Positions 3,486 through 54,794 are shown, numbered from the stretch's first letter. The stretch: 64,000 bases of DNA from a candidate division FCPU426 bacterium (GCA_963738405.1 CAVTWJ010000018.1:76294-140293); one strand, 5' to 3'. Notes: a model not told the origin generated them from the letters alone. A program made the numbers and translations.

Positions 3486-6400
3486 TTGAGTTTTTCAATT
3501 TATTTAGGCCCCTATCGGCCTTTTCTCGAACGGTCACTCTTTGATGAGGTGAAGAATCTCCGGCAAAAAGACCCCCTGACGCCGCTGGTGGTGCTGGTTC
3601 CCAACCGCTTGCTGGTGCGCCATCTGCGGGAGGCTTTGGCGCAAGACCAGGGGAAAATTTTCAACATCCGGTTCCTGACCTTCCACCAATATCTGCTGGA
3701 AGCCACCGAGGGGAAATGGATTCAAGAGGGGTTTCGGATGCTTCCCGAATCCCTGGTGTCCTGGGTTTTGCGGGAAACGGCCAGGGGACTCAAGCCCGCA
3801 TTAAGGTCCTTCAAGTCGGTGGAAGAAACCCCCGGTTTCCACAGGACCCTCCAGGCCACCCTTTCCGAACTTCGGCAAGCCGGAATCGACCCGGCGGACC
3901 TGAAAGAATCCTCCCGCAAGATCGGGAAGGACAAGACCCGCAAGAGGCTTTCGGAAAAATGGGATGAATTTTCCAAAATTCTTTCAGCCTATGAAGCCTG
4001 GAAGCGCCAGGAGAAATGGAAAGACCGGGAAGACCTTTATGTCGACGCCCTGACCCTGCCGCCGCCCGAAACCCCGATTTGGGCTTACGGCTTTTATGAC
4101 GCACCGACGCTACAAAAAAAAGTGTTACTTCACTTAACAGCAAAACCTGAGATTGCCACGTCGCCAAACGCCCCGATTGGGGCGGCTCCTCGCAATGACA
4201 ATAAAATGGAAAATTATTGGTTTATTCCCTACGAAGACCATCCGGCTTTTGAATACGCCAAGCCTTTCGTGGAATGGGCGAAAGAATATGGGAACGTTAA
4301 AGGCGTCGGGAAATATGAAAGTGAAAAGAAAACGCCGTTAGGTAAGTTACAGAACAACATATTTAAAACCGAACAACCTCAAGGCACCCCTCACCCTGAC
4401 CCTCTCCCTCAAGGGGAGAGGGCGGCTGGTGCTCTAAAGTTTGAGGACTCCGATGTGAAGATTCTTCTGTGTCCCGGTGAACCCCGTGAAATGCGGGAAG
4501 TGGTAAGGTCCATCACCGAGGAAGCCCAGAGGCAGGGAAGTTCCTTTTCCCAATGCGGGTTGATATTGCGGCAGTTCGATGCCTACCGCCGGGAAATCGT
4601 TCCGGCCTTCGACGGCCAGAAAATCCCCATCGCCAAAAAGCCCCCGGTCTTTTTGTTAGAAACCCCGGAGGCCAAGGCCTTTTTGCTTCTGCTCGAATGT
4701 TTCCAGAACGAATTTCCACGTGAGACCCTGATGAATTTCCTATCCAGCCCCAACCTGGATCCTTCGGGTTTTGGCCTCAAGAGCGCCGACTGGAATCCTC
4801 ATTTGTGGGACCAGGCTTCCAAGGAAGCGGGCATCGTGGAAGGCGAAGGCGCCTGGCTTGACCGCTTGCAGGACCATCTACATGAAGGTTCCGACCCCGA
4901 AGGGCGGGATGAGGAAAGCTTCTCGAAAGAAGAAAGGGAAACGCTGAAGGCCTTCCGAAACCAGGTGCTTCATACGCTCTTCCAAGGGCGGCGGTTGTTC
5001 GAGAAAGAAAAGAACTGGGTGGGTAAGACTCGGGTGCTTTTTGACCTGGTCGAAAAGATCTTCCGGCCTTCCGAGGCGAAGGAACAATTGAAGACCCTTC
5101 GACGCGGCGTGGAGATTCTTTCCAAAGATTCTTTCACGGTCGAGAAAGACGAGTTGGCTTCGCTTCTCACTGGACTCATGGATGAGGTATCAATCCCCTG
5201 GGAGATTTCCGGCTTCGGCGGGGTCGAGGTGTCGGACCTCATGCAGGCCCGGGGCGTTCCCTTTGATGTGGTGGTTTTGCCCGGCTTGGTGGAGCAGGGC
5301 TTTCCCCGTGTGCCCCGGCAAGACCCTCTTTTGTTGGATGAGGAACGGCGCTTGCTCAACGGCCTACTTGAAGGCAAGGCCCATATCCCCGAGAAATCGG
5401 AGGGCCGATTGGAAGAAAAGCTTCTCTTTCTTCTCATGGCCCGAAGCGCCAAGAAATGCCTTATCCTCACCGCCTCACATTTGCATCCCGGCACGGGCGC
5501 ACCAAGGGTTCCATCCAGCTACCTGCACGAGACCCTTCGGGCCGTAACCGGCCAACGCCAGGCTGAATGGGGCGCGGATTCCCCCTATATCAAGAAGGTC
5601 GCGGTGTCCGATTGGATCAGGGACGAGGGCGCCACCCGGGTCGATGACCTGGAAGAGGTGCTTACCCGTTTTCAGGAAGCCCGCCAGGGCAACCCCCTGC
5701 CCGCCCAGGCCTATTTGGAAGGGAAGCCCTTCTATCAGGAAGCACGGGAAATGCTTCAGGAACGGCAGGGCAAGCGTCGTTTCACCCCCTATGACGGGGT
5801 CTTTGAGGATGCCAAGACCATCGAAAGGCTCAGCCAGGAACATTCCCTGCAACATAAACCCCTTTCGGCCTCGCGTCTGGAAACCTACGCCACCTGCCCA
5901 CTGCGCTATTTCTACCGCTATGTGCTGGGGTTGAAGATCCACCCCGAGCCTGAGCGGGTCTTTCAGTTGGACCCGGCGGAAAAGGGAAACCTGATGCACC
6001 AGGTTTTGGAGGAAGTTCTTTCCCGGGGCGTGAAGGAAGGCTGGCTGAAAGAACGCGACCAGGAGAAGGCCCGCAAGGTTCTTGGCGAAGAGACCCAGCG
6101 CATCTTCAAAAAGTTTGAAAAGGAAGGCGTGCCCGGATCGCTGGCCTTGTGGCAGTGGAGCCAGTTAATTTTGACCCAGGACCTGGAAAGGGTTTTGCGG
6201 GAGGTTTTGGAAGACCCAAATTGGACTCCTGTCGATTTTGAAAAGGCCTTTGGCCGTCCGGGCCAAGCCGAAGTGGCCTTTACCTCCCCCGCCGGAATCT
6301 TTCGGCTGGAAGGCTTCATGGACCGGGTGGATGTAAAAGCGGACGGGAAACACTTAAGGGTCGTGGATTACAAATCGGGTAGCGCTATCGGGTTCAAGAA

Positions 6401-6755
6401 GAACAGCGTGAAGGAAGGCACCAAGATCCAAATGCCTCTTTATCTCTGGGCCTGCCGCACGCTTTATCCCCATCTGACCCCCGAACAAGCGGTCTATGAG
6501 TTCATCACCGCCAAGGGCGGCTACGGTTCTACGCCCTTCGATGCCACCGATTGGAACAAGGTCGAGGAACCCCTGAAGGCTCTTTTGACAACGGCCTCGC
6601 AAGCAGTGGAGCGGGGCCTTTTCCCCGCGGCGGCCAAGGCTTGCGAGCGATGTGACTTTAGATTGCTCTGCGGGCCGGGCGCTGAAAAGCGGGGAGAACG
6701 GAAGAGGGAAGATATGAAGGTTGGGGATTATTACAAGCTAGAAGAATTATTGTGA
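3486..6755 (+). CDS. addB: AddB-type helicase-nuclease subunit (inactivated helicase plus RecB-family nuclease with an Fe-S cluster)
   Basis: The protein is 1089 aa. The C-terminus has a PD-(D/E)XK nuclease motif (GFMDRVD...VVDYKSG) and four Cys (YATCPLRY ... CERCDFRLLC), typical of the AddB iron-sulfur domain. It lies directly upstream of the UvrD-like AddA gene. Confidence 0.8.
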   Translation: MSFSIYLGPYRPFLERSLFDEVKNLRQKDPLTPLVVLVPNRLLVRHLREALAQDQGKIFNIRFLTFHQYLLEATEGKWIQEGFRMLPESLVSWVLRETARGLKPALRSFKSVEETPGFHRTLQATLSELRQAGIDPADLKESSRKIGKDKTRKRLSEKWDEFSKILSAYEAWKRQEKWKDREDLYVDALTLPPPETPIWAYGFYDAPTLQKKVLLHLTAKPEIATSPNAPIGAAPRNDNKMENYWFIPYEDHPAFEYAKPFVEWAKEYGNVKGVGKYESEKKTPLGKLQNNIFKTEQPQGTPHPDPLPQGERAAGALKFEDSDVKILLCPGEPREMREVVRSITEEAQRQGSSFSQCGLILRQFDAYRREIVPAFDGQKIPIAKKPPVFLLETPEAKAFLLLLECFQNEFPRETLMNFLSSPNLDPSGFGLKSADWNPHLWDQASKEAGIVEGEGAWLDRLQDHLHEGSDPEGRDEESFSKEERETLKAFRNQVLHTLFQGRRLFEKEKNWVGKTRVLFDLVEKIFRPSEAKEQLKTLRRGVEILSKDSFTVEKDELASLLTGLMDEVSIPWEISGFGGVEVSDLMQARGVPFDVVVLPGLVEQGFPRVPRQDPLLLDEERRLLNGLLEGKAHIPEKSEGRLEEKLLFLLMARSAKKCLILTASHLHPGTGAPRVPSSYLHETLRAVTGQRQAEWGADSPYIKKVAVSDWIRDEGATRVDDLEEVLTRFQEARQGNPLPAQAYLEGKPFYQEAREMLQERQGKRRFTPYDGVFEDAKTIERLSQEHSLQHKPLSASRLETYATCPLRYFYRYVLGLKIHPEPERVFQLDPAEKGNLMHQVLEEVLSRGVKEGWLKERDQEKARKVLGEETQRIFKKFEKEGVPGSLALWQWSQLILTQDLERVLREVLEDPNWTPVDFEKAFGRPGQAEVAFTSPAGIFRLEGFMDRVDVKADGKHLRVVDYKSGSAIGFKKNSVKEGTKIQMPLYLWACRTLYPHLTPEQAVYEFITAKGGYGSTPFDATDWNKVEEPLKALLTTASQAVERGLFPAAAKACERCDFRLLCGPGAEKRGERKREDMKVGDYYKLEELL

Positions 6756-6771
6756 AAGGAGTTATTGAGAT

Positions 6772-7302
6772 ATGAAATATTTTACAGGTGATATGTGGAT
6801 GGGAGTTAATTCTTCAAATAAGAAGGTAATTAATAAAGCCGATTTAATGTGGAAAAGAAATATAAAAGCTTATTCAAAACAATTAGATGGATTAAGGAAA
6901 CATTTAGGGAAAAGAAACTATGATTTTTTTAAAAATATTTCTTTGCACGATAGTTGTTTTATTTCATTCAAGTTCAACCAACGTGAAAGTGAAAGTGTTC
7001 AAAAGATATTAAGATCGCCATTTAATTTTCAAAAAAGAATAATTGAAATAATAACTATAGAAGCCGAAAAGAATCAGATAGTTAAATTGATTTATAAAAA
7101 AGTATTTTCTGTCTTTATGGATTTGCCTGAAAAAGCACCTTTATTCGATGACTCTGATTATTTGGGGGGATGGGGTTATGGAGAATTAACATTAGATAAA
7201 AAAGGCCATCTTCAGCATGAAATACTTTTTAGCACTGGTGCGACGATTAAAATCGCCTTTGAAAATTTTGACTTTAAATATTTGTCAAAACCAAAGGTTT
7301 GA
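6772..7302 (+). CDS. hypothetical 176-aa protein encoded by a low-GC insert (about 30% GC) between addB and addA
   Basis: The ORF has an AGGAG ribosome-binding site 7 nt upstream. Its composition contrasts strongly with both neighbours, and I recognise no domain. Confidence 0.5.
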   Translation: MKYFTGDMWMGVNSSNKKVINKADLMWKRNIKAYSKQLDGLRKHLGKRNYDFFKNISLHDSCFISFKFNQRESESVQKILRSPFNFQKRIIEIITIEAEKNQIVKLIYKKVFSVFMDLPEKAPLFDDSDYLGGWGYGELTLDKKGHLQHEILFSTGATIKIAFENFDFKYLSKPKV

Positions 7303-7354
7303 ACATCCATAACGTGGAGCTAGACCGAATGACTTGTAAATACTGGAAAACGAA

Positions 7355-10300
7355 ATGATCTCTGACCAATCAATCCGAACCCTAGTCACACATGACCACG
7401 AGACCCTCTTTGCAGTGGATGCGGGAGCGGGCACGGGTAAGACCACACAATTGGTCGCCCGGCTTATCGCCCTATTACTCGAAAAGAAGGTTCCTTTAAG
7501 CCGCATCGCGGCCATTACCTTCACTGAAAAAGCTGCCGCGGAGTTGGCCCAACGTCTGCGCTTTAAACTTGAGGAAGCTCTCCCAAAATATCCCGAACAG
7601 AAAGCCCTGATCCTGAAAGCCTTAGAGGACATGGAGCGGGCCCCCATTTCGACCATCCATTCCTTTTGCGCTGGGTTATTGAAGGACTACCCGGTTGAGG
7701 CCGGAGTAGACCCTCAATTTGCCCTGATGGATGAAGTTCAATCAGGCGCTTTCGAGACCCAGACCTGGGAACATTGGCTGAAAAAGAACCTTTCCCAACC
7801 CGTCGAGCCCCTCTTCCAGTTCCTCCGCCTGGGCGGGACCTTCGAGCATGTGGATGAATTGAAGCAGTTCCTCAAGCGAAACCGGACCCTTCTGAAAACC
7901 CCTGAAAAACAAGCTCTTCCTTCGGTTGAGCCATTCCGCAAGGAGTGGAAAGAATTCCTCATCTGGAGCAAACAAGCCGCGAAGGACTGTAAAGACCACA
8001 AAGACAAGTTGTATGAAGCCCTCGAAACCTTCTGGGCCGAGAGCCAGGTTCAGGAATCCTCGAAGCCGGAGGAAGCGGATTTTAACCTCGCTTTGTTGGA
8101 TATCCCCAAGGTGAAAAGAACGGGCAATCAAAAGGCCTGGGATAAGGCGGTCTTGGACGAGATTCGCCTGCGTTTTGAGGGGCTCGCGGAAGACCACACT
8201 TCCGCCTTTGCGCCTTTCCGTGAAGCGGTGTTGTTGAACCTCATCCATTGGATTGGGGGTTACCTGACAGAATGGGAAACCCAGAAGGCTAAGAGCGGTT
8301 TCCTCGATTTCGACGATCTACTTTTAAAAACACGGGACCTCTTGCGCGACCACCTGGACAGTCGGGAAGAGATCAAGAAACGGTTCGACACCCTCTTCGT
8401 GGACGAGTTTCAGGACACCGACCCTTTGCAGGTGGAGATCGTGTTTTTCCTCTGTGAGTTGCAGGGTCGCCATGAAAAGGATTGGAAAAAAGCTTCTCTT
8501 GAACCTGGAAAATTGTTTTTGGTAGGTGACCCCAAGCAAAGCATCTACCGGTTCCGGCGGGCGGATGTAGCCATCTATGAAGCCACCAAAGAACGCATTT
8601 TAGCCAACGGGGGGAAGGTCGAGGTTCTGACCGAGAACTTCCGCACTGTGGGCGGGTTGGTGGAGTGGGTCAACGAGCGGTTCCTTCCTCAATTCGAAGG
8701 TTCGGGCATCACCTATCGAGCCCTGAACGCCAGCCGGGAGAAAGGTAAGACAGAAGGCACGCTTCCCATTCTTTGGGGGCTGAAGGTCCCTGTGCCGGAG
8801 GGTTCGGAAGACACCAAGGCCTTTTACCGTCAGCAGGAAGCCGAGTGGGTGGCGGCCTATTTGAAAGACCAGATCCTTCAGGGTGGGTGGACCGTCGCGG
8901 ACCCCAAAACGCATGAGCGGCGGGCCGTTCGGGCGGGGGATATCGCCCTGTTATTCCGGGACCTTTCCAATGACAACGAAGAATACTGGGAAGAGGCCCT
9001 GCGCAAGCGGGACCTGCCCTACCAGATCATCGGGGGCAAGAGGTTCTACAACCGGCCCGAGATTGTGGCCCTCTCCACTCTCCTCACTTGTCTTTCCTCG
9101 CCTGCGGATGAGGCGGCCTGCGTGGCGGTTTTACGGGGACCCCTCTTTGGGTTCTCGGACGAAGAATTGTTCCTTCATCGTGCTGACAAGGGTTCTTTCC
9201 TGTTTCAAGAAGATGCGAAAGAAAAGATGGGAAAAGCCTTTAAGTGTTTACGGGATTGGTTCGACGCCACCCGCACGCTCGGCGTATCGGAAACCTTGAG
9301 CTACCTCTACGAACACACCAACCTCTTAGCCATCACCGCCGGGCAACCCCACGGGGAACAGCGGGTCGCCAACCTCATGAAGGTCTTAGACCAAGCGCGG
9401 AACCTTGAAACCACCCAGCATTTCACCTACCGGGCTTTCACCCAGTGGCTGACCACCCAGCAAGAAGAAGGAACCTTAGAGGGCGAGGCGCCGGGGCCCG
9501 ATTCCTCCGAGGACCGCACCGGTGTCTTTTATGACACCGGTACCGACAAAACCAGCGCCTCGGCTGGTGGCCTCGGCGCAGATCGCATCACCCTCATGAC
9601 CATTCACAAGGCCAAGGGGTTGGAATTCCCCATCGTGTTCGTTTCCGCCTGGTCATCGGACCCCAAGGATTCGGGGAGCCTGGTGGACCGCAAGGCCATG
9701 GTGGGCGCTTTCAAAGTTGGCCGAGCCGACTTAGGCTTAAAGACCACAAATTACGATTCGGTCAAAGAAGATGAAGAGCTTCAACAACTAGCCGAAAACA
9801 CCCGATTGCTCTATGTGGCGGCCACCCGTGCCCGGGACTGTCTTTTACTGCCCCATTTCCAAATGCCTCTCGAGTGCAAATTCCAAAACGAAAACCTTTT
9901 TGCGGGGCCCCTCTTGAAGGCCTTGGAAGAAAAGGACTCGCCAGTGCGGTCTGCGCCGAGGCCACCAGCCGAGGCGGAAGATTTGACGATACTGGCGTCA
10001 ATAAAGACGCCAGTGCGTTGGGCGGAACCGGATAGTATCAAAGAGTCGCTGGGCGACCCGGCCGTTTGGTCGGTGAAACTGAACGTGGACCCGAAAGACC
10101 CGGCGCTTAAGGCGGAAAAAGAAAAACTCGTTTCCGAAAATCAAAAACGCACAGGTCTGATCGAAAGGATGATGGGCAAGCGAACTTTTCAATCGGTTAC
10201 TTCGGTCCTCGCTGTGGATGAAGATAAGAAAGGAACCGAAGAACGCATCTGGGAAGGGCCTGAGCCTTCTTCCCCCTGGGGTGGAAAGGAATTGGGTTCC

Positions 10301-10735
10301 TTCACCCATCTACTTTTGGAAAAGGCCTGGGATTGGAAACCAGCCCAAATCCCTCAGGCCGCGGAATATTACGGTGAAAAGATGGGTCTTTCACCTGAAC
10401 AAAGGGCGGAGGCGGCCCAGTGGGTCGAACAGACCCTTTTGAACCCTCTCATCCAAAGGGCTAAAAAATCCGAAAGGGCCTTCCGGGAATTGCCCCTTAC
10501 GGGAAAATATGAAGATGATTTTTTGAACGCGGTGCTCGACCTGGTCTTTTTGGAAGAAGGGAAATGGGTCATTGTGGATTACAAAACCGACCGGGACCCG
10601 AACAAGTTAGCCGAAAAATACGGGAAGCAATTAAAACATTACGCCAAGCTTTTGGAGCAGACCACCCAAATACCCGTCAAAGAAGCCCATCTCCTCTTTA
10701 TCCGGGAGAATCGGGCCCAAGCTGTCCCCCTTTAA
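7355..10735 (+). CDS. addA: AddA-type UvrD/Rep-family helicase-nuclease subunit
   Basis: It has a Walker A motif (AGAGTGKTT) and UvrD motifs (DEFQDTDP, TIHKAKGLEFP). A C-terminal RecB nuclease motif (IVDYKTDRD) is present. Confidence 0.85.
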   Translation: MISDQSIRTLVTHDHETLFAVDAGAGTGKTTQLVARLIALLLEKKVPLSRIAAITFTEKAAAELAQRLRFKLEEALPKYPEQKALILKALEDMERAPISTIHSFCAGLLKDYPVEAGVDPQFALMDEVQSGAFETQTWEHWLKKNLSQPVEPLFQFLRLGGTFEHVDELKQFLKRNRTLLKTPEKQALPSVEPFRKEWKEFLIWSKQAAKDCKDHKDKLYEALETFWAESQVQESSKPEEADFNLALLDIPKVKRTGNQKAWDKAVLDEIRLRFEGLAEDHTSAFAPFREAVLLNLIHWIGGYLTEWETQKAKSGFLDFDDLLLKTRDLLRDHLDSREEIKKRFDTLFVDEFQDTDPLQVEIVFFLCELQGRHEKDWKKASLEPGKLFLVGDPKQSIYRFRRADVAIYEATKERILANGGKVEVLTENFRTVGGLVEWVNERFLPQFEGSGITYRALNASREKGKTEGTLPILWGLKVPVPEGSEDTKAFYRQQEAEWVAAYLKDQILQGGWTVADPKTHERRAVRAGDIALLFRDLSNDNEEYWEEALRKRDLPYQIIGGKRFYNRPEIVALSTLLTCLSSPADEAACVAVLRGPLFGFSDEELFLHRADKGSFLFQEDAKEKMGKAFKCLRDWFDATRTLGVSETLSYLYEHTNLLAITAGQPHGEQRVANLMKVLDQARNLETTQHFTYRAFTQWLTTQQEEGTLEGEAPGPDSSEDRTGVFYDTGTDKTSASAGGLGADRITLMTIHKAKGLEFPIVFVSAWSSDPKDSGSLVDRKAMVGAFKVGRADLGLKTTNYDSVKEDEELQQLAENTRLLYVAATRARDCLLLPHFQMPLECKFQNENLFAGPLLKALEEKDSPVRSAPRPPAEAEDLTILASIKTPVRWAEPDSIKESLGDPAVWSVKLNVDPKDPALKAEKEKLVSENQKRTGLIERMMGKRTFQSVTSVLAVDEDKKGTEERIWEGPEPSSPWGGKELGSFTHLLLEKAWDWKPAQIPQAAEYYGEKMGLSPEQRAEAAQWVEQTLLNPLIQRAKKSERAFRELPLTGKYEDDFLNAVLDLVFLEEGKWVIVDYKTDRDPNKLAEKYGKQLKHYAKLLEQTTQIPVKEAHLLFIRENRAQAVPL

Positions 10736-12834
10736 CTTCCTAACCCCAACTGTCCCATTTCATATTTCAACCAGGCGTTTCCCGGGGAAAGCTTCTGGGC
10801 CTTTTGGAAAATCTTTTTAGCTTCCGCTTTTTCGCCTTCTACGGCCAAGAGCTTGCCGTATTTTTCACATAGAGTCGCATCCTGGTAGCTTTTCCCAAAA
10901 GATTGATGGAATGTTTCCGAGAAATTATTCCAATTCGCCCAGTTATCCCCCGGGAAAAAAGTATTTTCCCAGGAAAAATTAAAAGCCAGTTTTTCGAAAT
11001 AACAAGATTGAAGAAAGGGGTCGGAAGGGATGGAGGGATAGGCCTGTAACATTTTTTCAAGGACCGCTTGGTGGGGTTTGCCGGTGGGGATATCCACCGA
11101 TTCCAAATTGATCTCCTGCTGAAACGTGTAATAACTTTTCCATCGCTCCAGGAAGGTCCTATTTACCGGAGTCACCGGTAAAATCCCGAGCGCGTGCCGG
11201 CTCAAGACCCCGGGTTGAGGGGTCCCGCCGTTGATCCAACGGCAGTCAGGGAGAGCCTGGGATAAAAAGGGTAGATAGTGGGTTTCCGTAAAGACCGCCG
11301 CCCATTTCACGTCTTGTCCCAGACGCTGGTTCCAGGCCGCGTTGAAAGGGTAGGAACAATAGGCCAGCGAGTAATTTTGGGGGCTGGGAACCATATCCGA
11401 AAAGATCCAACCGGGTCCCTCCGCCCTCGCCAGGTTGTCCAGACTCCTATATCCGTCCCGGTACTCGCTGAAATCGACCTGGGCGGGATTCGGAAGAAAT
11501 AACCGATTGAGGTCCCAAACCGCCGAAGAACCCAGCACCACGACCAGCAGGAGGGGACGTAATCGGCCTGGCAGGGATAAGACCAAGGTTTCTATTCCCA
11601 AGGCCAAAAAGATCAGCAGAAGGGGTAACGCTAGGAGCATCCGGTGGGCTTCCAGGTCCCTGGATAAAAGGCCGGGCAGGAGGAAGATGGGAAAGGCAAC
11701 CAAAAGAATTTTGGATAGTAATTTAAAGCGCCCTCGGACCATTTCAACGAATCCCAAAAGGAAAGCCGATCCCAATAAGGCGTTTAATAGCCCCCCTTGG
11801 GGCGCCAATTCCATCCCCGAGGTCCCGCCCCAAAAAATCGCCTGAAGATAACTGAAAGCGACCCGCGCCTGACCCCATAGGGTAAAAGAAGGATCATTCC
11901 AAGCCGCTACTTCATGCAAATGCCCGCCATAGCCCGTCCCAACCGCCGTGAGAAGAAAAGGAACCATTCCCCCCAAAAGAAAAATGAAAAAAAGTCCTCC
12001 GGCGGCCCACTCCGTTTTTTTCCAAAACCATCCGCCTGCCACCCCCAACCCAAATAGAGTTAATACGGGCCAAGCCATAAAGGTATAGGGCCCCAAGCCC
12101 AAGGCCAGCCCCAAGGCGCAGGCCCAAATTTTTCGGGAGGCGGGATTGGGGGACAAAGTCAAACGGCCGAACAGGTAAAGTACCCCCCATTCCCAAAAGG
12201 GAAGCAAAACCCCCGGTTCATCGCACCGGGAAAGAAGAAGGTCCCATAGGTTGAAAGCCGTTATAACCGCGAGGATTCCCGCGAGGGGCCTTGAAAAATA
12301 AAGGCGCGCGGCGGCATAGCTTAAAACCACGGTCAAAAACGAGACCAGGGCCGAGGGAATTTGGATTCCCAGAAGATTCGAACCCGTCAACCTTGCCGCG
12401 AAATAGAAAAGGTAACTGAGCGTGCTGGGAACCTGGCTTAGGATCACAAAAGGTTTCCATTGCCAATGGTCCATCCACTGGATGACCGACAGGGCCAAGA
12501 GGGAAGAGTCCCCTCCCGGCCAGCGGCTTAAGGAACCGATACCCCAAAATCTCACGAGGGCCGCGAACGTCAGGAGGAAAAACCAAACCCAGACTGGGAA
12601 GGAAGCGTTTTCGCCGGAACCCTTGGATCGAAGAAATGAACGATCCCTGGCCGGGGAAGAGGGGGATAAATAAATCAAAAGCAAGGGCAAGGCTAATCCT
12701 AAAAGAAGAATCCGGATTTTGGAGGGTGGGGAAAGCGGAGTCTGGGATAAAAGCGAAAGGCTGGCGGCCAGTATGATAAAACAAAGCCAAGCGGGAAATG
12801 GAATCGACCGGGCTGTTATTTTGTTTTTTTTCAC
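10732..12834 (-). CDS. polytopic membrane glycosyltransferase-like protein (GT39/ArnT-like fold) with a C-terminal TPR-like tail
   Basis: About 12 hydrophobic segments are followed by a soluble C-terminal region. It is a paralog of 30845..32881. Its 3' end overlaps the addA stop, so the two genes converge. Confidence 0.55.
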   Translation of the reverse strand: MKKNKITARSIPFPAWLCFIILAASLSLLSQTPLSPPSKIRILLLGLALPLLLIYLSPSSPARDRSFLRSKGSGENASFPVWVWFFLLTFAALVRFWGIGSLSRWPGGDSSLLALSVIQWMDHWQWKPFVILSQVPSTLSYLFYFAARLTGSNLLGIQIPSALVSFLTVVLSYAAARLYFSRPLAGILAVITAFNLWDLLLSRCDEPGVLLPFWEWGVLYLFGRLTLSPNPASRKIWACALGLALGLGPYTFMAWPVLTLFGLGVAGGWFWKKTEWAAGGLFFIFLLGGMVPFLLTAVGTGYGGHLHEVAAWNDPSFTLWGQARVAFSYLQAIFWGGTSGMELAPQGGLLNALLGSAFLLGFVEMVRGRFKLLSKILLVAFPIFLLPGLLSRDLEAHRMLLALPLLLIFLALGIETLVLSLPGRLRPLLLVVVLGSSAVWDLNRLFLPNPAQVDFSEYRDGYRSLDNLARAEGPGWIFSDMVPSPQNYSLAYCSYPFNAAWNQRLGQDVKWAAVFTETHYLPFLSQALPDCRWINGGTPQPGVLSRHALGILPVTPVNRTFLERWKSYYTFQQEINLESVDIPTGKPHQAVLEKMLQAYPSIPSDPFLQSCYFEKLAFNFSWENTFFPGDNWANWNNFSETFHQSFGKSYQDATLCEKYGKLLAVEGEKAEAKKIFQKAQKLSPGNAWLKYEMGQLGLGS

Positions 12835-30844: not shown

Positions 30845-32881
30845 CTAAACAAAACTTTTCTTTGACTCTTCATCTCGTTTTTGAAATTGAAGGCATAATC
30901 CCAGGTTGTAGTAAAGTTGGGCGGCCGGTATTCCCAAATGGATTGCGTTCTTAAATGCTTGAGTTGCTTGCACGAAATGACCGTCCAAAACCTTGAAAAA
31001 CGCGAGTTTTTCCCAGTAGACCGCGGTTAAAAAGCGGTCGGCGGGAAAGGAATCGGGTAGGGTTGGCCGGGACTCCAAAAAACTAGCCCATCGTTCATTC
31101 TGCCTTTTATTCATAACCTCAAACTGGGCATCACCGTAAACCCGGTCGGCGCTTTTCCAAGCTTCAAGCATAGGCGGGGGAATTTGGGCTGTTGGAATTA
31201 AAAATACCGCAAAAGGTTTGGGGTCCTCTGGACGACGTTTGTCTGTATCAAGGATTTTCCACCTCACGCCGGGAAATCTTTTCTCGAAATAAGGCGCGTA
31301 ATGAGCGTTGGTGATCAATGCAGTCCAAGAAGGGTTTGGATTCCTTAGGGATGGGTTGTGGATCGCGTCAAAGGGGTAACATGCGACATCTAATGTTCTA
31401 TTTACATAGTCCGTGTTGAACTCGGTGAAAAGGTTGAGGGAACCTTCCGGTTTGCTGAACGCCTTTAAAATTCGATAAGCGTCGTAATATTGAAAATTTC
31501 GCCATTGCTGGTTCAAATTTCCGCATAGCCGGATATCGTCATATAAATTGAAGAAATGATAAAAATTGAGGAGAGTGGGTGTCAGCAATAGACCGAGGAA
31601 AGCCCATTTCCTTAAAGGAAAAGATATATTTGTAAAAAGGTCACGGAGACCGAATGAAGCAAAAAGCATAAAAAAAATGAACACAGGCGTGGCTCTCTGC
31701 AATTCCAATCCGTTGGAAAGGATGCCGGGAAAAAGGGAAAGAAAGGTTCCGGAAACCAAAAGAAAAAAAACCTTTCGGTCTAAACACCGTGCCGAGTATA
31801 AAATTCCATTTAAAACAAGGGTTCCGGTCACTGCGTCAAAATACCCGCCCCAAATGGGGCCAAGGGGATAACTGTCCTTTCCGTTCAAAAAAAATCCACG
31901 AAGATACGAGAAAAAAGAAGAAAAAAATGATGAACTAATAACATTTTCTTGAAGGTGCTGGGTCGCTCCGGGTGCAAAACGAGCGAGGACTAAGGGCAAG
32001 GAAAGCGCCAACGAAAGAACAATAAATAGAAAACCTTGGGATCTTTTAATTCGATCGGGATAAGAAAAGATGACCATCGCAAAGAATAACCAGGCGACGA
32101 TCCAATTGGTGTAACTATAAAATCCAAAGCCGCACCAAATTCCCAAAACCACTGTCCAAAACCAAGAATTGGAATTTCTTTGGGTTTTCATGAGGATTCC
32201 CAAAAGAATGAAGGCGATGAGTTGAAAAAGCGGGATTAAGTCATTGGGAGTGCACTGACGGGAGAAGCCGATCTCCCAAAAGGATAGGGTAACAAACCAG
32301 CAAAAGACAAAAGCGAGAAAAGGCTCAAAAACTCGTTTTGCGGCGGCATAGGCCGAACCGCCGATGGCGATTGATATAAGGACGGTAAAAAACCTTTGCG
32401 TCAGCAGTGAAACTCCGACCCATCGATAGAACAAAGCTAACAACCATAGCAGCAGGGGTTCCATCTGACCTTGGGCCCAAAGAAGAGTAGTGCTCCACTT
32501 TTTCATGAGGCCGATCGCCAAAAAAGAAAAAATACCTTCGTCAGTTAGGGGCCAAAAAGGGATGCTGGACAATCGGTAAAACCTTGAGAAAACAAAAAAA
32601 ACAAAGAAGAGAATCCAAAAGAAAGGGAATAAATGGATTGTCTTTTCAAAAGTTGTTTCCGGCACATCTTTCAATTTTCTCGTACGGATTCCAAAAAAAA
32701 TGCCCAATAGGAAAGGAAGAAAAAGACCCATCCATCCAATCCATAGAATGGCTTGTGGAGGAAGTGAAAAATAAGATAGAAGAACGTTGGAAGCTAGAAA
32801 CAAGCAGAAGTAGGGCCAGGGATTAAAGTGTGGATGTTTTTTAAGGAGAACTAAAATATTCTGAAAATCTTTCATAGGCAT
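30845..32881 (-). CDS. polytopic membrane glycosyltransferase-like protein with a C-terminal TPR-like tail (paralog of 10732..12834)
   Basis: Its architecture matches the other paralog, and the C-terminal soluble domains are alignable (YFEKLAF / YWEKLAF). Confidence 0.55.
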   Translation of the reverse strand: MPMKDFQNILVLLKKHPHFNPWPYFCLFLASNVLLSYFSLPPQAILWIGWMGLFLPFLLGIFFGIRTRKLKDVPETTFEKTIHLFPFFWILFFVFFVFSRFYRLSSIPFWPLTDEGIFSFLAIGLMKKWSTTLLWAQGQMEPLLLWLLALFYRWVGVSLLTQRFFTVLISIAIGGSAYAAAKRVFEPFLAFVFCWFVTLSFWEIGFSRQCTPNDLIPLFQLIAFILLGILMKTQRNSNSWFWTVVLGIWCGFGFYSYTNWIVAWLFFAMVIFSYPDRIKRSQGFLFIVLSLALSLPLVLARFAPGATQHLQENVISSSFFSSFFSYLRGFFLNGKDSYPLGPIWGGYFDAVTGTLVLNGILYSARCLDRKVFFLLVSGTFLSLFPGILSNGLELQRATPVFIFFMLFASFGLRDLFTNISFPLRKWAFLGLLLTPTLLNFYHFFNLYDDIRLCGNLNQQWRNFQYYDAYRILKAFSKPEGSLNLFTEFNTDYVNRTLDVACYPFDAIHNPSLRNPNPSWTALITNAHYAPYFEKRFPGVRWKILDTDKRRPEDPKPFAVFLIPTAQIPPPMLEAWKSADRVYGDAQFEVMNKRQNERWASFLESRPTLPDSFPADRFLTAVYWEKLAFFKVLDGHFVQATQAFKNAIHLGIPAAQLYYNLGLCLQFQKRDEESKKSFV

Positions 32882-38017: not shown

Positions 38018-40750
38018 GTGAAAGTGTCCTACATTCCTATTACCCCCGAAGATGAAAAGGCCATGTTGTCGGTCATTGGGGTGAAAAACATCGACGATCT
38101 TTTCGCTGACGTGCCGCCCTCCGTTATTCTCAAAAAAGGCCTGAACCTTCCTCCCGGCCTGACCGAACCCGAACTCAAGCGTTTCTTCAACATGATCGGA
38201 AAGAACAATCAGCCGGTTTCCGACCGTCCCTGTTTTCTAGGAGCTGGGCTTTATTACCATGAGGTTCCCGCCGCCGTGAAGGCCGTGGTAACCCGGCCGG
38301 AATTTTTAACTTCCTATACGCCCTACCAGCCCGAGATCGCCCAGGGAACGCTCCAGGTTCTCTTTGATTTCCAAACCTATATGGCTGAATTGACAGGGCT
38401 GGAAGTTTCAAACGCCTCCCTTTACGACGGCGCCTCCGCCGTGGCGGAAGCGGTGCTTTTGGCCCTCAGGGTCAAAAAGGCCGAATCCTTTGTTTATGTG
38501 TCCCGGGGATTGCACCCCGAATACCGCCAGACCATCCAGACTTACTTAAACCCCCAGGGGCATAAGATCCACGAGATCGGTTTAAAGGGAACAGAAACCG
38601 ACCTGGAACAGCTCAAGACCGATCTTTGGCCCAATGCGGTGGTGGTGGTCCAATATCCCAATTTCCTTGGAACGGTCGAGGATCTATCCGCCATCTCAAA
38701 AGCTTGCAAAGAAAAGAACGCCTATTTGGTAGTGGCCGTGGCCGAAGCCATGAATCTGGCCCTGTTGCCTTCCCCTGGGTCGCTGGGGGCGGATGTATGC
38801 GCTGGGTCCGCCCAATCTTTCGGAAATCTTCTTTCTTTCGGCGGGCCCCACGCCGGGTTCTTGACCGCCCGCTTTGAGGATATCCGCCAGATGCCGGGCC
38901 GCATCGTGGGCGAAACCACCGACCGCAACGGAAAAACCGGCTGTGTGCTTACCTTTCAAGCCCGGGAACAGCATATCCGCCGTGAAAGGGCGGCTTCCAA
39001 CGTCTGTACCACCCAGTCCCTCATGGCCAATTTCGCCTCCGCCTGGCTCTACTTTAAAGGCGGCAAGGGCGCCCAACAGGCGGCCAAGGACGGCGCGGCC
39101 ACGGCCCACGCTTTGGCGGGAGAAATTCAGAGAATTCCTGGGTTTAAAATAGAAACGGTTCGATACGCCAATGAGTTTGTAGTTCGTCCGCCCTCCTCCA
39201 GGTTCGCTGATTTCCTGGCCGAATGGGGCTTGGTAGCGCCCTACGATTTATCCAACGACTATCCCGAGTTCAAAGACTGCGTCCTAGTGGCTTGTACCGA
39301 ATTGACCAGCCTGGAAGACATGGAATCTTTTTTCTCGGCCTGCGAGGAATTCTCAACCAAGGGCCACGCCGGGAAGGTCCACCAAAAACCAACCGAGCTT
39401 CCTTCCTGGATCACGGTCCGCAAACCCGCCGCCATCGCCGAACACCCGGAGGTGGATTTGATCCGCTATTACACGGCCTTGGCCCGTAAAAATTTCTGCA
39501 TCGACAACGGCTTTTACCCCTTGGGTTCCTGCACCATGAAGTACAACCCGAAAGTGAACGAGGAAATCGCCCTCGCGGACGCCTGGGCCAACCTGCATCC
39601 CACCCAGCGTGAGGATGAGGTTCAAGGCGCCCTGCAGGTAATTTTCGAACTGGAACATTGGCTAAAGGAAATTACCGGCTGTCACGCCCTGACGCTCCAG
39701 CCCGCCGCTGGCGCCCATGGGGAACTGACGGCTCTTTTGATGGCAAAGCGCTATTTCGCCGACCGGGGCGAGCACCAAAGGGTCAATGTCATCGTTCCCG
39801 ATTCGGCCCACGGCACCAACCCGGCCTCGGCCACCATGGCGGGTTGGAAGACCATTTCCATCCCCACCGATGCCAGGGGCAACATGGACGTGGAACTATT
39901 GAAGGCGAAATTGGGTAAAGACACGGCTGTCTTGATGTTGACTAATCCAAGCACCTTAGGTCTTTTCGAAGAGAACATTCTTGAGGTGGCCAGGCTGGTA
40001 CACGAAGCGGGGGGTCTTCTTTATTATGACGGCGCCAACATGAACGCCATTGTAGGGATCTGCCGCCCGGCGGATATGGGGTTCGATTTGGTGCACTTGA
40101 ATCTTCACAAAACTTTTTCCACACCCCATGGCGGCGGCGGTCCAGGCTCGGGCCCGGTAGGCTGCACGAAGGCTCTGGAACCCTATTTACCTGAACCCAG
40201 GGTCTTCAAAGAAGGCAACCGGTATTTCTTAAAATCCGGGTCGCCCCAGTCCATCGGCCGCATGAAGGCGAACGTGGGCAATTTCGGCGTGCTCATCCGG
40301 GCCCTGGCCTACTGCAAGCGATTGGGCAAGCAGGGACTGGAAAGGGTGGGGCGTGTCGCGACCTTGAACGCGAATTATATGTTGGCCCGCTTGAAGGGCC
40401 CCTATACGCCCGCTTATGACCGCCTTTGCAAGCATGAGTTTGTCTTAACCGCCGAGCCTCTTAAGGAAAAATACGGTATCTCGGCTTTGGATATCGCCAA
40501 ACGGCTGATTGATTTTAATTACCACCCGCCCACCATCTATTTCCCGCTGGTGGTCCATGAGGCGGTCATGATCGAGCCCACCGAGACCGAAACGAAAAAG
40601 ACGTTGGATGAATTTTCGGAGGTCATGCTCCAGCTGCGCCAGGAAATGGAAACAAACCCGGATGTCTTCAAAAGCGCGCCCTATTCCACGCCCGTCTCAA
40701 GATTGGATGAGGTTAAGGCGGTCAAGGAACCGAGATTAGTGAAGAAATAA
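38018..40750 (+). CDS. gcvP: glycine dehydrogenase (decarboxylating), a single-chain fusion of the P-protein subunit 1 and subunit 2 regions
   Basis: The protein is 910 aa. The N-terminus is MKVSYIPITPEDEKAML, and the PLP-lysine region is in the C-terminal half (NLHKTFSTPHGGGGPG). Confidence 0.9.
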   Translation: MKVSYIPITPEDEKAMLSVIGVKNIDDLFADVPPSVILKKGLNLPPGLTEPELKRFFNMIGKNNQPVSDRPCFLGAGLYYHEVPAAVKAVVTRPEFLTSYTPYQPEIAQGTLQVLFDFQTYMAELTGLEVSNASLYDGASAVAEAVLLALRVKKAESFVYVSRGLHPEYRQTIQTYLNPQGHKIHEIGLKGTETDLEQLKTDLWPNAVVVVQYPNFLGTVEDLSAISKACKEKNAYLVVAVAEAMNLALLPSPGSLGADVCAGSAQSFGNLLSFGGPHAGFLTARFEDIRQMPGRIVGETTDRNGKTGCVLTFQAREQHIRRERAASNVCTTQSLMANFASAWLYFKGGKGAQQAAKDGAATAHALAGEIQRIPGFKIETVRYANEFVVRPPSSRFADFLAEWGLVAPYDLSNDYPEFKDCVLVACTELTSLEDMESFFSACEEFSTKGHAGKVHQKPTELPSWITVRKPAAIAEHPEVDLIRYYTALARKNFCIDNGFYPLGSCTMKYNPKVNEEIALADAWANLHPTQREDEVQGALQVIFELEHWLKEITGCHALTLQPAAGAHGELTALLMAKRYFADRGEHQRVNVIVPDSAHGTNPASATMAGWKTISIPTDARGNMDVELLKAKLGKDTAVLMLTNPSTLGLFEENILEVARLVHEAGGLLYYDGANMNAIVGICRPADMGFDLVHLNLHKTFSTPHGGGGPGSGPVGCTKALEPYLPEPRVFKEGNRYFLKSGSPQSIGRMKANVGNFGVLIRALAYCKRLGKQGLERVGRVATLNANYMLARLKGPYTPAYDRLCKHEFVLTAEPLKEKYGISALDIAKRLIDFNYHPPTIYFPLVVHEAVMIEPTETETKKTLDEFSEVMLQLRQEMETNPDVFKSAPYSTPVSRLDEVKAVKEPRLVKK

Positions 40751-40762: not shown

Positions 40763-41935
40763 TTAAGGATTCCACTTCTTTTCCATTTCCTTATATTCAG
40801 GCGTGTTAATAATGTTTTTAAATTGGGTGTCATCATATATTTGTTTTTTATAGGTCGGATCTAAAAGATAAATCTGACGTATTTCTTCGATCGCTTTCGT
40901 GTTTTGAGATTGTGCCCAATAAACAATTGCCAGATTGTAGTGGGACATTATTAAATTAGGATTGATATAAAGGGATTGTTGCAGTGCTATCTTGGCGTCA
41001 TCTAATTGTCCATTTCTATAATAGGAATAGCCAATCAACCCATATGTTTCTGCATCCTGTTTTTTGTCATCGAGTGCCTTTTTATATTCAGAAATCGCGT
41101 TAATGTATTGGTGTTTTAAATATAACTTTTTTCCTACTGCTATATGATCTGTTTCCACTACCCATTTTAGAAATGAGTTGTCCGAATGACCTGAAGTTAT
41201 AACGTAATCTGTGTTTTTTTTAATGTCGTAAACATGTATTTGACGGTCACCAAAAGCTAATGGCCCTCCATCCACCCAAACAATCCAATTTCCTTCATCG
41301 GAAATTATGAATTCTTGGCCTGTTCCAATATGAATCATGGATTTTGCTTCGGGATTATATTGGTAAAAATTATCTGCCCGTATATCCGTCGTTCCACCAG
41401 GCAATGAAAGAAAAAACAAATCGTGATAGTTAGCCCAACCCAAAAATTCCCAATCAAACAAGCTGGATTCTGTGCCTGCCAATTTGATAATTTTATTTAT
41501 AGAATTATTTTTGTAGCGAATACCTATTTCTGGTGATCCATCGAAACAAACTGACCACCTGCCATCAGTTGAGGAAATTAAAACTGGAGACTCAGCCGTG
41601 GCAGATGCGATTTCGTTTTCCAAACTAATTAAATCATGTCGCTTTTCGAATCTAGGATCAAATTGGGATGTGTAATCGGGTAAAGATTGATCTTGGAAAT
41701 AAGTTCCATCTGATTTGACCAAATTGGGTTTAAAAATACTTTTTCCTTTATGTTGGTAAACTCTGCGCCAAATATAAAAAGATGGAAAATCAGGTTTGTC
41801 TTTGACCAAATTTCCTTGAATCACTTTAATCGTTTTTGCGGTAACTGCTTCAGATTGAGCATTCAAGTAAGGGGTTGGAAATGTGTATAGAGAGACTATA
41901 AAGAGAAGTAATAAGCTCAATATTTTTCTAAACAT
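40763..41935 (-). CDS. secreted hypothetical protein with C-terminal TPR repeats (low GC, about 35%)
   Basis: It has a signal peptide and TPR-like repeats (AETYGLIGYSYYRNGQLDDAKIALQQSLYINP...). Its composition contrasts sharply with gcvP and lipA. Confidence 0.5.
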   Translation of the reverse strand: MFRKILSLLLLFIVSLYTFPTPYLNAQSEAVTAKTIKVIQGNLVKDKPDFPSFYIWRRVYQHKGKSIFKPNLVKSDGTYFQDQSLPDYTSQFDPRFEKRHDLISLENEIASATAESPVLISSTDGRWSVCFDGSPEIGIRYKNNSINKIIKLAGTESSLFDWEFLGWANYHDLFFLSLPGGTTDIRADNFYQYNPEAKSMIHIGTGQEFIISDEGNWIVWVDGGPLAFGDRQIHVYDIKKNTDYVITSGHSDNSFLKWVVETDHIAVGKKLYLKHQYINAISEYKKALDDKKQDAETYGLIGYSYYRNGQLDDAKIALQQSLYINPNLIMSHYNLAIVYWAQSQNTKAIEEIRQIYLLDPTYKKQIYDDTQFKNIINTPEYKEMEKKWNP

Positions 41936-52140: not shown

Positions 52141-53133
52141 ATGAAAAAAACATTTCTATTGGGATTGGGTCTTTGGCTCGCGGCCGGCTTAAGCCTCGCC
52201 CAGCAAAAACTGTCACTGGAGAATTATCTTCAACAGGTCCAGCAACAAGGCCCGGACTTCCAGGCCTCCAGCGCGGCGGCGGAAGGCTACGAGAAACAAT
52301 CCCACCAGCAGGACCTGGTCTATTCGCCCCAATTAGTGGCCTCCTACAACCACATGGATGACCAGTCCCAGCAATCAACGGTTTTGGCCACCACCCAAAC
52401 CCTGGCCGACTCGGCGGGCCTGTCCATTGTGGACAAATTACCCTTCGGGCCATCAGTGGCGGTGGGTTACGCTTTCAACGACATCAACCTGACCTACGCT
52501 CCCCAGCTGGTTAATTTTTTCGGAGGCAACAGTTCCGCCTTCTTAAATTCTTACTATCAAATCAGCCCTGTGGTCTCCCTGTCAGTCCCCCTCTTCAAGG
52601 ATTTCGGAGGCGCCCAAACCAATGCCGGGGTGAAGGCCGTCCAGTACGGCTTGGAATCGGCGCAAAAACTTTCGGCCTTCCAGCGCGAAGGCGTCCTCTA
52701 TAACGCCAAGGTCGCCTATTGGAACCTGGCCCTCACCCGGGAAGAAGTGGATATCCGCCAAGACACCCTGGACCGCAGCCAAAAGATATGGGACTGGACC
52801 AAACGCCGGGTCGCGCGCAACCTGGCCGACCCCCCGGATGCCCTGCAGGCCGAGGCCTCGGTGCGGGAAGCAGAGCTTGATTTACAAACCGCCGAAAACC
52901 GCGAGCGCTCTGCCCGGCTGGCCTTTAACCGTTTCCGCAACGGCGCCACCGAGGATGTGCCCGAACAGCTGGAGGCCCTGGAAGATTCGCTGACCCTGGT
53001 GAAGGTGGATTTTCCCGCCGACTTACCCCAGCGCATCGACCTTCAGGCTGTGGAGGCCCAAACCCGCCCAGTGTTCCTGCTGGGTGAGGCCAGGCTTATT
53101 CGCTGGCATCAGGAGAGCGGCGGCCGACACTAA
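52141..53133 (+). CDS. TolC/OEP-family outer-membrane efflux protein, apparently C-terminally truncated at the compositional breakpoint
   Basis: It has a signal peptide (MKKTFLLGLGLWLAAGLSLAQQ) and OEP-type coiled-coil/beta repeats. Only about 330 aa are present against about 450 expected. The ORF ends where GC content and gene content change. Confidence 0.55.
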   Translation: MKKTFLLGLGLWLAAGLSLAQQKLSLENYLQQVQQQGPDFQASSAAAEGYEKQSHQQDLVYSPQLVASYNHMDDQSQQSTVLATTQTLADSAGLSIVDKLPFGPSVAVGYAFNDINLTYAPQLVNFFGGNSSAFLNSYYQISPVVSLSVPLFKDFGGAQTNAGVKAVQYGLESAQKLSAFQREGVLYNAKVAYWNLALTREEVDIRQDTLDRSQKIWDWTKRRVARNLADPPDALQAEASVREAELDLQTAENRERSARLAFNRFRNGATEDVPEQLEALEDSLTLVKVDFPADLPQRIDLQAVEAQTRPVFLLGEARLIRWHQESGGRH

Positions 53134-53176
53134 ATGGACAAGGAGGCTTAAATGGCCCGAACGCTCACCTTGGTAG

Positions 53177-54115: not shown

Positions 54116-54137
54116 GAGGCGGACATGTTGCGGACAC

Positions 54138-54794
54138 TTGCCGAGAAGGTCGCAGCCGGAACACTGCGCGCTCCTGATCGTCGACGTGCAGAACGACTTC
54201 TGCGCCGAAGGCGGGGCCATGCATCGCGAGGGGCGTGACTTGACGCTGGTCAAGGCGATGGTGCCGCGCCTTGCAGCGTTCGTGGACGCGGCACGGGCGG
54301 CTGGCGTTCCGCTGATCTGGATCCGCAATGTCTACAACACCGGGCCGAACTGGTACCTGTCGGAGGTTTGGCTCGAACAGGCACACCGCCGCCGGCGTGG
54401 CGCTTATCTGTCGATTCCGGTTTGCGAGCCGGAACAGTGGAACGGCGATTTCTTCCAGATCAGGCCGATTGCTGATGAAGCGATCGTGACCAAGCACCGC
54501 TACGGCGCATTCGAATCCAGCGATCTCGACCTGGTGCTGCGCTCACGTGGCATACGCACCGTGGTCATGACCGGGGTCGCGACGAATGTCTGCGTCGAAA
54601 CCACGGCCCGGCAGGCGTTCCTGCGTGACTATTACGTCGTCTTCACCAGCGACTGCACGGCGACCTACAGCCAGGCCGAGCATGATGCGACACTGCACAA
54701 CATCAATTCGTTCTTCGGCGCTGTCGTTAGCTCCGAGGAAGTGCGCGCCTGCTGGCCGCTGCCGAGCATTCGCCTGCGCGCGGCTGCTGGTTAG
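54138..54794 (+). CDS. isochorismatase-family cysteine hydrolase (N-terminus possibly frameshifted)
   Basis: It has ALLIVDVQNDF and VVMTGVATNVCVETTAR motifs. An ATG at 54125 is in another frame, suggesting an indel near 54165. Confidence 0.65.
   Translation: MPRRSQPEHCALLIVDVQNDFCAEGGAMHREGRDLTLVKAMVPRLAAFVDAARAAGVPLIWIRNVYNTGPNWYLSEVWLEQAHRRRRGAYLSIPVCEPEQWNGDFFQIRPIADEAIVTKHRYGAFESSDLDLVLRSRGIRTVVMTGVATNVCVETTARQAFLRDYYVVFTSDCTATYSQAEHDATLHNINSFFGAVVSSEEVRACWPLPSIRLRAAAG

Follow-up and report, generated by a model that had tools for sequence, protein, structure and literature searches.

Gene organization between addB and addA

The window, i.e. the whole stretch of 64,000 nt of FCPU426 DNA analysed here, carries on its plus strand the two genes of an AddAB-type helicase-nuclease. 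The first (3486–6755) encodes an AddB-like protein of 1089 amino acids, in which a helicase-like N-terminal part is followed by a PD-(D/E)XK nuclease with C-terminal Fe–S cysteines (Pfam PDDEXK_1, 7e-40; ADDB_N, 7e-11; UvrD_C, 4e-8). The second (7355–10735) encodes an AddA-like protein of 1126 amino acids with a UvrD-type helicase and a C-terminal PD-(D/E)XK nuclease (UvrD-helicase, 9e-53; UvrD_C, 5e-25; PDDEXK_1, 3e-9). Since the scores against the NCBIfam models addB_Gpos (8e-32) and addA_Gpos (3e-89) are both well under the equivalog cut-offs, the genes are called AddAB-type by domain architecture and not as equivalogs.

The gap between addB and addA, given as 600 bp in a preliminary description of this DNA, measures 599 bp and is largely filled by an ORF of 531 bp (6772–7302, ATG to TGA), which is on the same strand as both flanking genes and encodes a protein of 176 amino acids. 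The ORF is separated from addB by 16 nt and from addA by 52 nt. Its own ribosome-binding site, already noticed in the preliminary description, is the Shine-Dalgarno sequence AAGGAG (6756–6761, plus strand), located immediately 3′ of the addB stop codon and 10 nt before the ATG. The 52-nt spacer on the other side (7303–7354, plus strand, 40% GC) stands where the addB stop and the addA start overlapped in the putative ancestral arrangement discussed below, and the ribosome-binding site in front of addA is weak and of the GGA type.

The GC content of the ORF is 28.4% (GC3 23.7%), in agreement with the ∼30% stated before. That its neighbors are rich in GC also holds, but the previous figure of ∼57% was slightly too high, as addB has 55.3% (GC3 65%) and addA 54.4%. 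For windows of 531 nt across the 64 kb we determined a mean of 53.6% with a standard deviation of 6.6%, and the ORF is the minimum of the entire window, followed by a region with 32.8%. It lies in a low-GC island of 760 bp (6661–7420, 33.7% GC), the deepest GC trough of the window. Thus, a compositionally foreign gene is indeed wedged into an AddAB-type operon. In a different part of the window, the GC content jumps after ∼53 kb.

Within positions 6000–8000 neither a terminator-like hairpin nor an excess of promoter-like sequences was found, and there was no Rfam match and no terminal repeat or target-site duplication above chance around the insert. Judged from the common strand and the lack of a predicted terminator, the ORF is probably cotranscribed with addB and addA, which fits the single transcription unit assumed previously.

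A genuine gene with an ortholog at the same position

At the composition of the ORF, an open frame of 176 codons has a probability of ∼2.4e-8, and the other five frames contain 9–24 stop codons. A word-indexed protein search returned, apart from the protein itself, one protein of 76% identity (P0002). Its gene occurs in three independent soil metagenomes (L001, L002, and L003) at exactly the position of the window ORF, with addB, the ORF, and addA in one direction and lytB on the other side of addB in the opposite direction. It has a GC content of 27.5% next to an addB gene of 56%, and in L001 it is preceded by the Shine-Dalgarno sequence GGAGG at a distance similar to that of AAGGAG in the window. 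Between the window and the L001 lineage, AddB is 68–70% and LytB 81% identical. The comparison of the ORF with its ortholog gave a dN of 0.13 and a dS of 0.74, and the resulting dN/dS of 0.18 indicates purifying selection. The ORF at 6772–7302 is a genuine gene under such selection.

Low-GC inserts in metagenome-assembled genomes can be created by misassembly, and the window with its GC jump after ∼53 kb might raise the suspicion of an assembly or binning chimera, if not of a chance ORF in an AT-rich spacer. Both have practically no probability and were ruled out. Over 11.9 kb including the junction, the sequence is 100% identical in an independent Logan assembly, and orthologous junctions are present in the three other metagenomes. 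The improbability of the open frame, the dN/dS value, the 255 clusters of homologs, and the confidently predicted structure (both described below) are likewise incompatible with a non-gene.

A divergent member of the DUF4085 superfamily

The preliminary description did not recognise a family for the 176-aa product, and our scans against Pfam, NCBIfam, PADLOC, and PHROGs also resulted in zero families (PADLOC at E ≤ 1), so that a component of a known defence system was rejected. By exhaustive HMMER searches we found homologs in 255 cluster representatives at E ≤ 1e-3, and in 76 at E ≤ 1e-10. Nearly all of them have a length of 150–190 amino acids and align end to end. In an alignment of 70 members the N-terminus MKYFTKELW is conserved, Y34 is invariant, and H59, D60, Y108, W134, G135, Y136, E138, and H149 are conserved in at least 90%. 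Eight of these 70 relatives match Pfam DUF4085 (PF13315; best value 5.2e-8), an uncharacterised bacterial family with proteins of ∼130–220 amino acids. The window protein resembles DUF4085 in its length, the MKYFTKE.W start, and the HD and HEILF-type motifs, but it falls outside the Pfam model, with no match even at E ≤ 1. Using tblastn, a RefSeq “DUF4085 family protein” from Clostridium tagluense plasmids was detected (2e-11, 29% identity over 94% of the query), and the plasmid search repeated with a bona fide DUF4085 query returned the same four records and no others. Homology in tblastn together with the missing match to the Pfam model suggests a divergent sister group outside the current DUF4085 model. 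By its sequence, the window protein is a divergent member that is new to this uncharacterised superfamily. Since a literature search on DUF4085, PF13315, and 5V77 found no mention, the name adds no function. A sequence profile search of the PDB produced only a chance match to cystalysin (E = 0.06), and a tblastn search with the ORF product against phages revealed no homolog.

We inspected ∼12 genomic contexts of homologs from other genomes. In none of them was addAB or recBCD located next to the homolog, no conserved partner gene was found, and no LXG, Rhs, PAAR, CdiA, or other toxin gene was present upstream. One homolog (L005) is placed between a COX15/CtaA gene and a UbiA/CtaB gene, overlaps both, and has 38% GC compared to 54–60% in its flanks. 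Another one, in a Planctomycetota genome (L006), follows 3′ of a PIN-type toxin–antitoxin pair, a third (L037) is found after genes for HNH, DUF6883, and DUF4926 proteins and upstream of rpsU-dnaG-rpoD, and a fourth (L021) lies 3′ of a PAPS-reductase gene. Hypothetical genes and GNATs are the neighbors in L007–L009 and L023. Homologs on plasmids occur in Clostridium and Bacillus, one of them 7 nt 3′ of a gene for an alpha/beta hydrolase. For all seven loci that were measured, the homolog was richer in AT than its surroundings. The family thus has the profile of a stand-alone accessory gene, often directly behind a native gene. The toxin candidates nearest to any homolog are the stand-alone HNH gene of L037, at a distance of two genes, and the upstream PIN gene of L006.

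Predicted structure and possible function

The AlphaFold2 model, built with the 70-sequence alignment (pLDDT 93.5, pTM 0.88), predicts an alpha + beta protein with three helices (residues 6–55), followed by an eight-stranded beta domain and one short helix. Foldseek matched this model to PIM7 (PDB 8owu, chains D/E; probability 1.00, target TM-score 0.65–0.67) and returned no other credible match. PIM7, which was not detected by the profile search of the PDB, has an identity of 9–10% to the window protein and spans only its C-terminal two thirds. A search of a viral fold library with the ORF model gave no meaningful match. Experiments have validated PIM7 as the protein that confers immunity to PT7, an LXG-linked DNase toxin of Bacillus cereus. 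PIM7 plugs the nuclease pocket of PT7 via an Asp at the tip of the α1-βA loop (10.1101/2021.10.19.465003). Since the preliminary description had proposed structure prediction for this protein, it is worth stating that a PIM7-like fold and no homology to a housekeeping family was obtained. The predicted similarity to an immunity fold is the first structural lead for the DUF4085 superfamily.

In the model, a loop with H59 and D60 is located between helix 47–55 and strand 62–69. This loop appears to take the position of the Asp loop of PIM7, as inferred from its place in the model. The beta domain of the window protein shares the fold of PIM7, but the window protein has an additional basic helical N-terminus of 55 residues, and the binding face of PIM7 is acidic while the window protein is basic overall. 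Its pI is 9.6 and its net charge +10, with +9 in the N-terminal helical part. The PIM7-like part (residues 57–176) is near neutral with 17 K+R versus 16 D+E, and the median pI of the family is 8.8.

Based on the predicted fold, the product may act by protein binding, as an orphan immunity factor or antidote that counters an incoming toxin, a tentative assignment for which the chances are clearly below even. Binding of the toxin would then use the H59-D60 loop together with the strands carrying W134-G-Y-x-E138 and H149-E150, and the missing toxin neighbor would be explained because the immunity gene is an orphan. However, neither the window ORF nor any homolog examined adjoins a toxin gene, and the ∼12 contexts of the family contain no adjoining polymorphic toxin. 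Most members of the family are basic, in contrast to the acidic toxin-binding face of PIM7, and the nearly invariant His, Asp, and Glu residues resemble a catalytic or metal site at least as much as a fast-evolving binding interface. The low identity to PIM7 and its restriction to the C-terminal two thirds of the protein also speak against this function. Since the synteny of a cognate immunity gene with its toxin gene was not observed, we did not file the protein as an immunity protein. The conserved residues would also suit a small enzyme or a metal- or ligand-binding protein, e.g., with a detoxifying or modifying activity, encoded by a hitch-hiking gene as well, which we regard as slightly less likely. 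In either case the product is a cytoplasmic stand-alone protein.

The addB–addA junction in other FCPU426 genomes

The junction was surveyed in 8 GTDB loci collected with an AddA query (four of the eight are named FCPU426) and in 12 metagenome loci collected with the AddB C-terminus. After duplicates had been dropped (L013 = L026, L016 = L032, L030 = L003), 19 distinct genomes remained. In three of them (L013/L026, L016/L032, and L034) the junction is empty and the addB stop and addA start overlap by 4 nt, with the sequence ..GAGGAACTTCC TTGA TCTCCGACC.. (..CC TTGA TCTCC..). Judged from these sequences, the 4-nt TTGA overlap must be the ancestral state of the junction. The other 16 genomes carry an insert of 0.4–2 kb, comprising 14 mutually unrelated primary genes and one low-GC insert without a long ORF. 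Comparison of related addB–addA loci, as suggested in the preliminary description, hence revealed that the window ORF is not conserved across the lineage.

The DUF4085-like gene for 176 amino acids is the only insert in the window and in L001. Single genes without extra genes also encode proteins of 299 (L011), 304 (L015), 352 (L018), and 363 (L025) amino acids with no Pfam family, membrane proteins of 131 (L024) and 199 (L029) amino acids, a TPR protein of 399 amino acids (L028), a Ser/Thr kinase of 541 amino acids (L031), and a DUF1573 protein of 159 amino acids (L035). The insert without a long ORF (L033) has at least 751 nt, and no extra genes were seen in it. Four inserts contain confirmed or candidate toxin–antitoxin genes next to duplicated ends of addA or addB. 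A ∼150-aa lipoprotein-like protein is accompanied by a MazF-type module and an addB 3′ fragment (L012), a 394-aa protein with a hydrophobic N-terminal part by a Phd/PIN pair and an addA 5′ fragment (L014), a 179-aa protein with no Pfam family by two small ORFs, one of them weakly CcdA-like, and an addA 5′ fragment (L017), and a weakly Sel1-like protein of 353 amino acids by an RHH/MazF pair and an addA 5′ fragment (L027). The labels secreted, membrane, and lipoprotein-like were read from hydrophobic N-termini; by this feature, the proteins of L011, L015, L018, L025, L027, and L028 look secreted. For the window ORF itself, a toxin–antitoxin component was ruled out, as it is a single gene for 176 amino acids with no partner gene.

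Nearly all primary genes are on the strand of addB. Overlap between the start codon and the stop codon of addB (NTGA), at the former site of the addA start, was observed for 9 of 15 inserts. The inserts have 32–49% GC and the flanks 52–63%, every insert measured being well below its flanks. Low-GC segments were found in 12 of 17 slots, compared to ∼5 in 156 kb of flanking DNA outside the slot. Two pairs of genomes allow a direct view of empty and filled junctions. L034 (empty) and L035 (filled) have flanks of ∼86% nucleotide identity, and the insert is bracketed by a CCTTGAA repeat; between L016/L032 (empty) and L015 (filled) the bracketing repeat is ATGA.

All-against-all BLASTP of the inserted genes detected no similarity except between the window and L001. 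In the clade of the window (AddB 88–92% identical) every genome carries a different gene, and the DUF4085-like gene is common only to the window and L001, which belongs to another clade (AddB 70%). Since near relatives differ and a distant genome shares the gene, turnover is fast compared to the divergence of the flanks, and the distribution of the inserted genes departs from the AddB tree. No recombinase domains were found in the ORFs of the slots, no long terminal repeats in the window, no attC-like motif or shared k-mer in the spacers before addA of 10 loci, and no integrase in the flanks. An integron cassette was ruled out because an attC-like site and an integrase are missing. The addB–addA junction is a lineage-wide insertion hotspot without mobile-element genes in FCPU426.

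Compared to its close relatives, the window loses identity on both sides of the slot, over the terminal 150 nt of addB and the initial 78 nt of addA. In a clade-wide sliding average no dip past normal fluctuation was visible in the flanks beside the slot, and the comparison of the window with L001 gave no clear signal for cotransfer of the flanks.

Probable accessory cargo rather than a component of AddAB

We consider it likely that the ORF is a real accessory cargo gene residing in a hotspot and not a component of AddAB. We propose that transcripts starting at the addB promoter would read through into the ORF and that its translation would be initiated from its own AAGGAG site. The gene would thereby borrow its expression from a repair operon that is needed constitutively, while its product would neither depend on AddAB nor act on it. 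Recombination within the conserved flanking genes addB and addA could account for the turnover of the slot, as for other hotspots without mobile-element genes. A cargo gene exploiting the operon, perhaps an immunity gene, was one of the options offered before, and it fits best to the unrelated genes found in nearly every relative and to the immunity-like fold.

The other option, a regulator or inhibitor of AddAB, would imply that the product attaches to AddAB or to the DNA on which AddAB acts and modulates or blocks the helicase-nuclease, and this would explain its coexpression from inside the operon. The genes of both subunits enclose the ORF with short spacers, no terminator was predicted, the gene is kept at the same site in two lineages under purifying selection, and the helical N-terminus with its charge of +9 could bind DNA. 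Nevertheless, we judge such a role very unlikely. The slot is empty in three genomes and elsewhere holds unrelated secreted or membrane proteins, a kinase, and toxin–antitoxin modules, so that its contents are interchangeable, and neither addAB nor recBCD is found near the homologs in any of the ∼12 other contexts. The structural matches of the ORF model include no known RecBCD/AddAB inhibitor (Gam, gp5.9, or others) and no phage protein. With no likeness in sequence or fold and no phage homolog, a phage anti-RecBCD protein (Gam, gp5.9, Abc2, and similar) was rejected.

The cargo does not need to be a recent arrival. A DUF4085-like gene could have been present in the slot of the common ancestor of the two clades and could have given way to other genes repeatedly in other genomes; AT-biased mutation under weak selection, not a foreign donor, would then account for its low GC. 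In favor of this possibility, the ortholog shares the exact position, the Shine-Dalgarno sequence is conserved and the 3′ spacer partly so, and the deep divergence of the two copies (dS 0.74, 76% amino acid identity) is of the same order as that of lytB (dS 0.93). Moreover, all genes of the slot as well as family members in other phyla are richer in AT than their flanks. However, no fewer than 10 replacements or losses would have had to occur independently under such a history. The dS of the ORF is lower than that of addB (1.69) and its nucleotide identity higher than that of the flanks (81% compared to 73%), which suggests a later exchange, and GC3 is 24–27% in both lineages compared to 65% in the host, with no drift to the host value at a dS of ∼0.7. 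We therefore regard an old resident as possible but rather unlikely. Low GC alone is no proof of a foreign donor, since the accessory genes of this lineage are all AT-rich.

It is improbable, though worth considering, that the junction represents a dedicated, long-lived polymorphic locus with envelope or secreted and immunity-like alleles that are tied to the expression of the repair operon. It would be comparable to O-antigen or mating-type idiomorphs, with alleles swapped via recombination in the flanks, for example orphan immunity or surface-variation genes that are coexpressed with the repair of damage by nuclease toxins or phages. The DUF4085-like protein would then be an immunity factor against an incoming DNase and functionally paired with repair by AddAB. 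As a further possibility, an insert such as the accessory gene described here may break the translational coupling of addB and addA and lower the dosage of AddA, thereby shielding itself from recombinational curing.

Comparison with known hotspots and operon insertions

Price, Arkin & Alm (2006, PMC1480536) reported that ORFans often sit downstream of native genes, whose promoters drive their expression. The lineage-restricted AT-rich gene directly downstream of addB resembles these hitch-hiking genes, but that study does not describe many different genes recurring at a single internal junction. According to the same study, insertions within pre-existing operons are much rarer than additions at operon ends. 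Many transfer hotspots are without mobile elements (Oliveira, Touchon & Rocha 2017, PMC5635113). Such hotspots tend to adjoin recombination or repair genes, and their diversity arises through double recombination at the core genes on either side. The FCPU426 slot shares with them the conserved core flanks, the rapid turnover of unrelated accessory genes, and the absence of an integrase or transposase. However, these hotspots lie between transcription units, and new genes rarely integrate within operons (PMC5635113), whereas the FCPU426 slot coincides with a 4-nt overlap between subunit genes that are translationally coupled, and it usually takes up one gene, which is translationally coupled to addB. 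Hotspots free of mobile elements and hitch-hiking ORFans are already known; the FCPU426 slot differs in being a hypervariable site inside an operon.

Operons for multi-subunit enzymes are thought to be resistant to internal insertion, but the FCPU426 junction was opened repeatedly. It is surprising that at least 14 unrelated genes have made recurrent and precise use of the addB–addA overlap in the main operon for double-strand-break repair of an uncultured soil phylum. The slot provides a clean natural system for the origin and turnover of hotspots without mobile elements, allows to test if insertions beside recombination genes are selected, and shows how ORFan genes borrow the expression of a native operon.

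The adjacency of addB and addA, described as normal in the preliminary description, has a textbook exception in the homologous E. coli operon recC-ptrA-recB-recD, where an unrelated gene, for the periplasmic protease III, is found at the equivalent junction (RecC corresponding to AddB and RecB to AddA). Its presence there has been attributed to insertion into an ancestral operon of recC and recB (PMC1480536). Unlike the FCPU426 cargo, ptr is classed as native by Price et al. (PMC1480536), and the FCPU426 junction differs from that of E. coli by its hypervariability between close relatives and its low-GC, ORFan-like cargo. The arrangement recC-ptrA-recB may have arisen by the process seen in FCPU426 and then become frozen. 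In the annotation of K-12, the only E. coli strain checked, ptrA is on the same strand as its neighbors and overlaps recB by 8 nt.

Gene pairs and expression signals at the addB/addA junction

In addition to single cargo genes, the slot between addB and addA contains pairs of small genes in four FCPU426 genomes. Three of the four pairs are confirmed TA modules, namely a MazF-like gene with its partner (L012:4789-5503), a Phd/PIN pair (L014:6001-6833) and an RHH/MazF pair (L027:5103-5775), while the fourth consists of two small ORFs, one of them weakly CcdA-like (L017:6001-6810). Each pair is bounded by a full-length flanking gene and by a duplicated fragment of the end of this same gene, comprising residues 1-24 or 1-54 of AddA or residues 1017-1082 of AddB. 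Since the pairs lie between the intact gene and its duplicated end, recombination events that duplicate the addA 5' or the addB 3' end are suggested as their route of entry.

In most genomes the 3' end of addB (..TTGGAGGA..) also serves as the Shine-Dalgarno site of the next gene, be it addA or cargo. Within the window's own addB 3' end (6700-6755) this site inside the gene has decayed to CTAGAAGAA, and a new AAGGAG is found 3' of the addB stop codon.

Two copies of the flanking genes are irregular. The AddA match in L018:6001-9392 falls into two pieces (residues 1-226 and 236-1126) about 150 nt apart, and AddB of L013 carries a frameshift about 60 codons ahead of its end (5828-5831). Both could be due to sequencing errors in the MAGs, to small insertions or to pseudogenisation.

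Related genes at other sites

After the ortholog P0002, the nearest relative of the DUF4085-like window ORF is P0003 (41% identity), encoded at L005:300-830 between the COX15/CtaA and UbiA/CtaB genes. Its two ends overlap the adjoining genes (TAATG and TTGA), and its GC content is 38%, compared to 54-60% in the flanks. L005 is a second instance of a member of this family within a two-gene functional unit. The gene of another member, P0004, is grouped with a stand-alone 94-aa HNH protein gene and a DUF6883/DUF4926 gene pair (L037:3921-5549), flanked by nuo genes and rpsU-yqeY-dnaG-rpoD; in its makeup the group resembles a small conflict-system cluster.

The window has a second gene of markedly low GC (40763-41935, minus strand; 35% GC, GC3 30%), which directly follows the gene at 38018-40750. 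Its product is a TPR protein of 390 aa whose N-terminus resembles a signal peptide. Because the addB/addA slot cargo of L028 is a homolog of this protein (38% identity, E 4e-68), different sites are populated from one common pool of low-GC accessory genes.

Other features of the window

Two PMT_2-type (dolichyl-phosphate-mannose-like) glycosyltransferase genes, distant paralogs with 25% mutual identity, are present on the minus strand. One (10732-12834) is convergent to addA, sharing 4 nt with the 3' end of that gene; in the other (30845-32881) GC is lowered to 43%. Over the final 10 kb (53000-64000) GC climbs from about 53% to 61-68%, with GC3 of the ORFs near overall GC and few Pfam matches (acyl-CoA dehydrogenase C-terminal domain, amidohydrolase). 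The region may be a genomic island, or the contig, being assembled from a metagenome, may be chimeric at this point.
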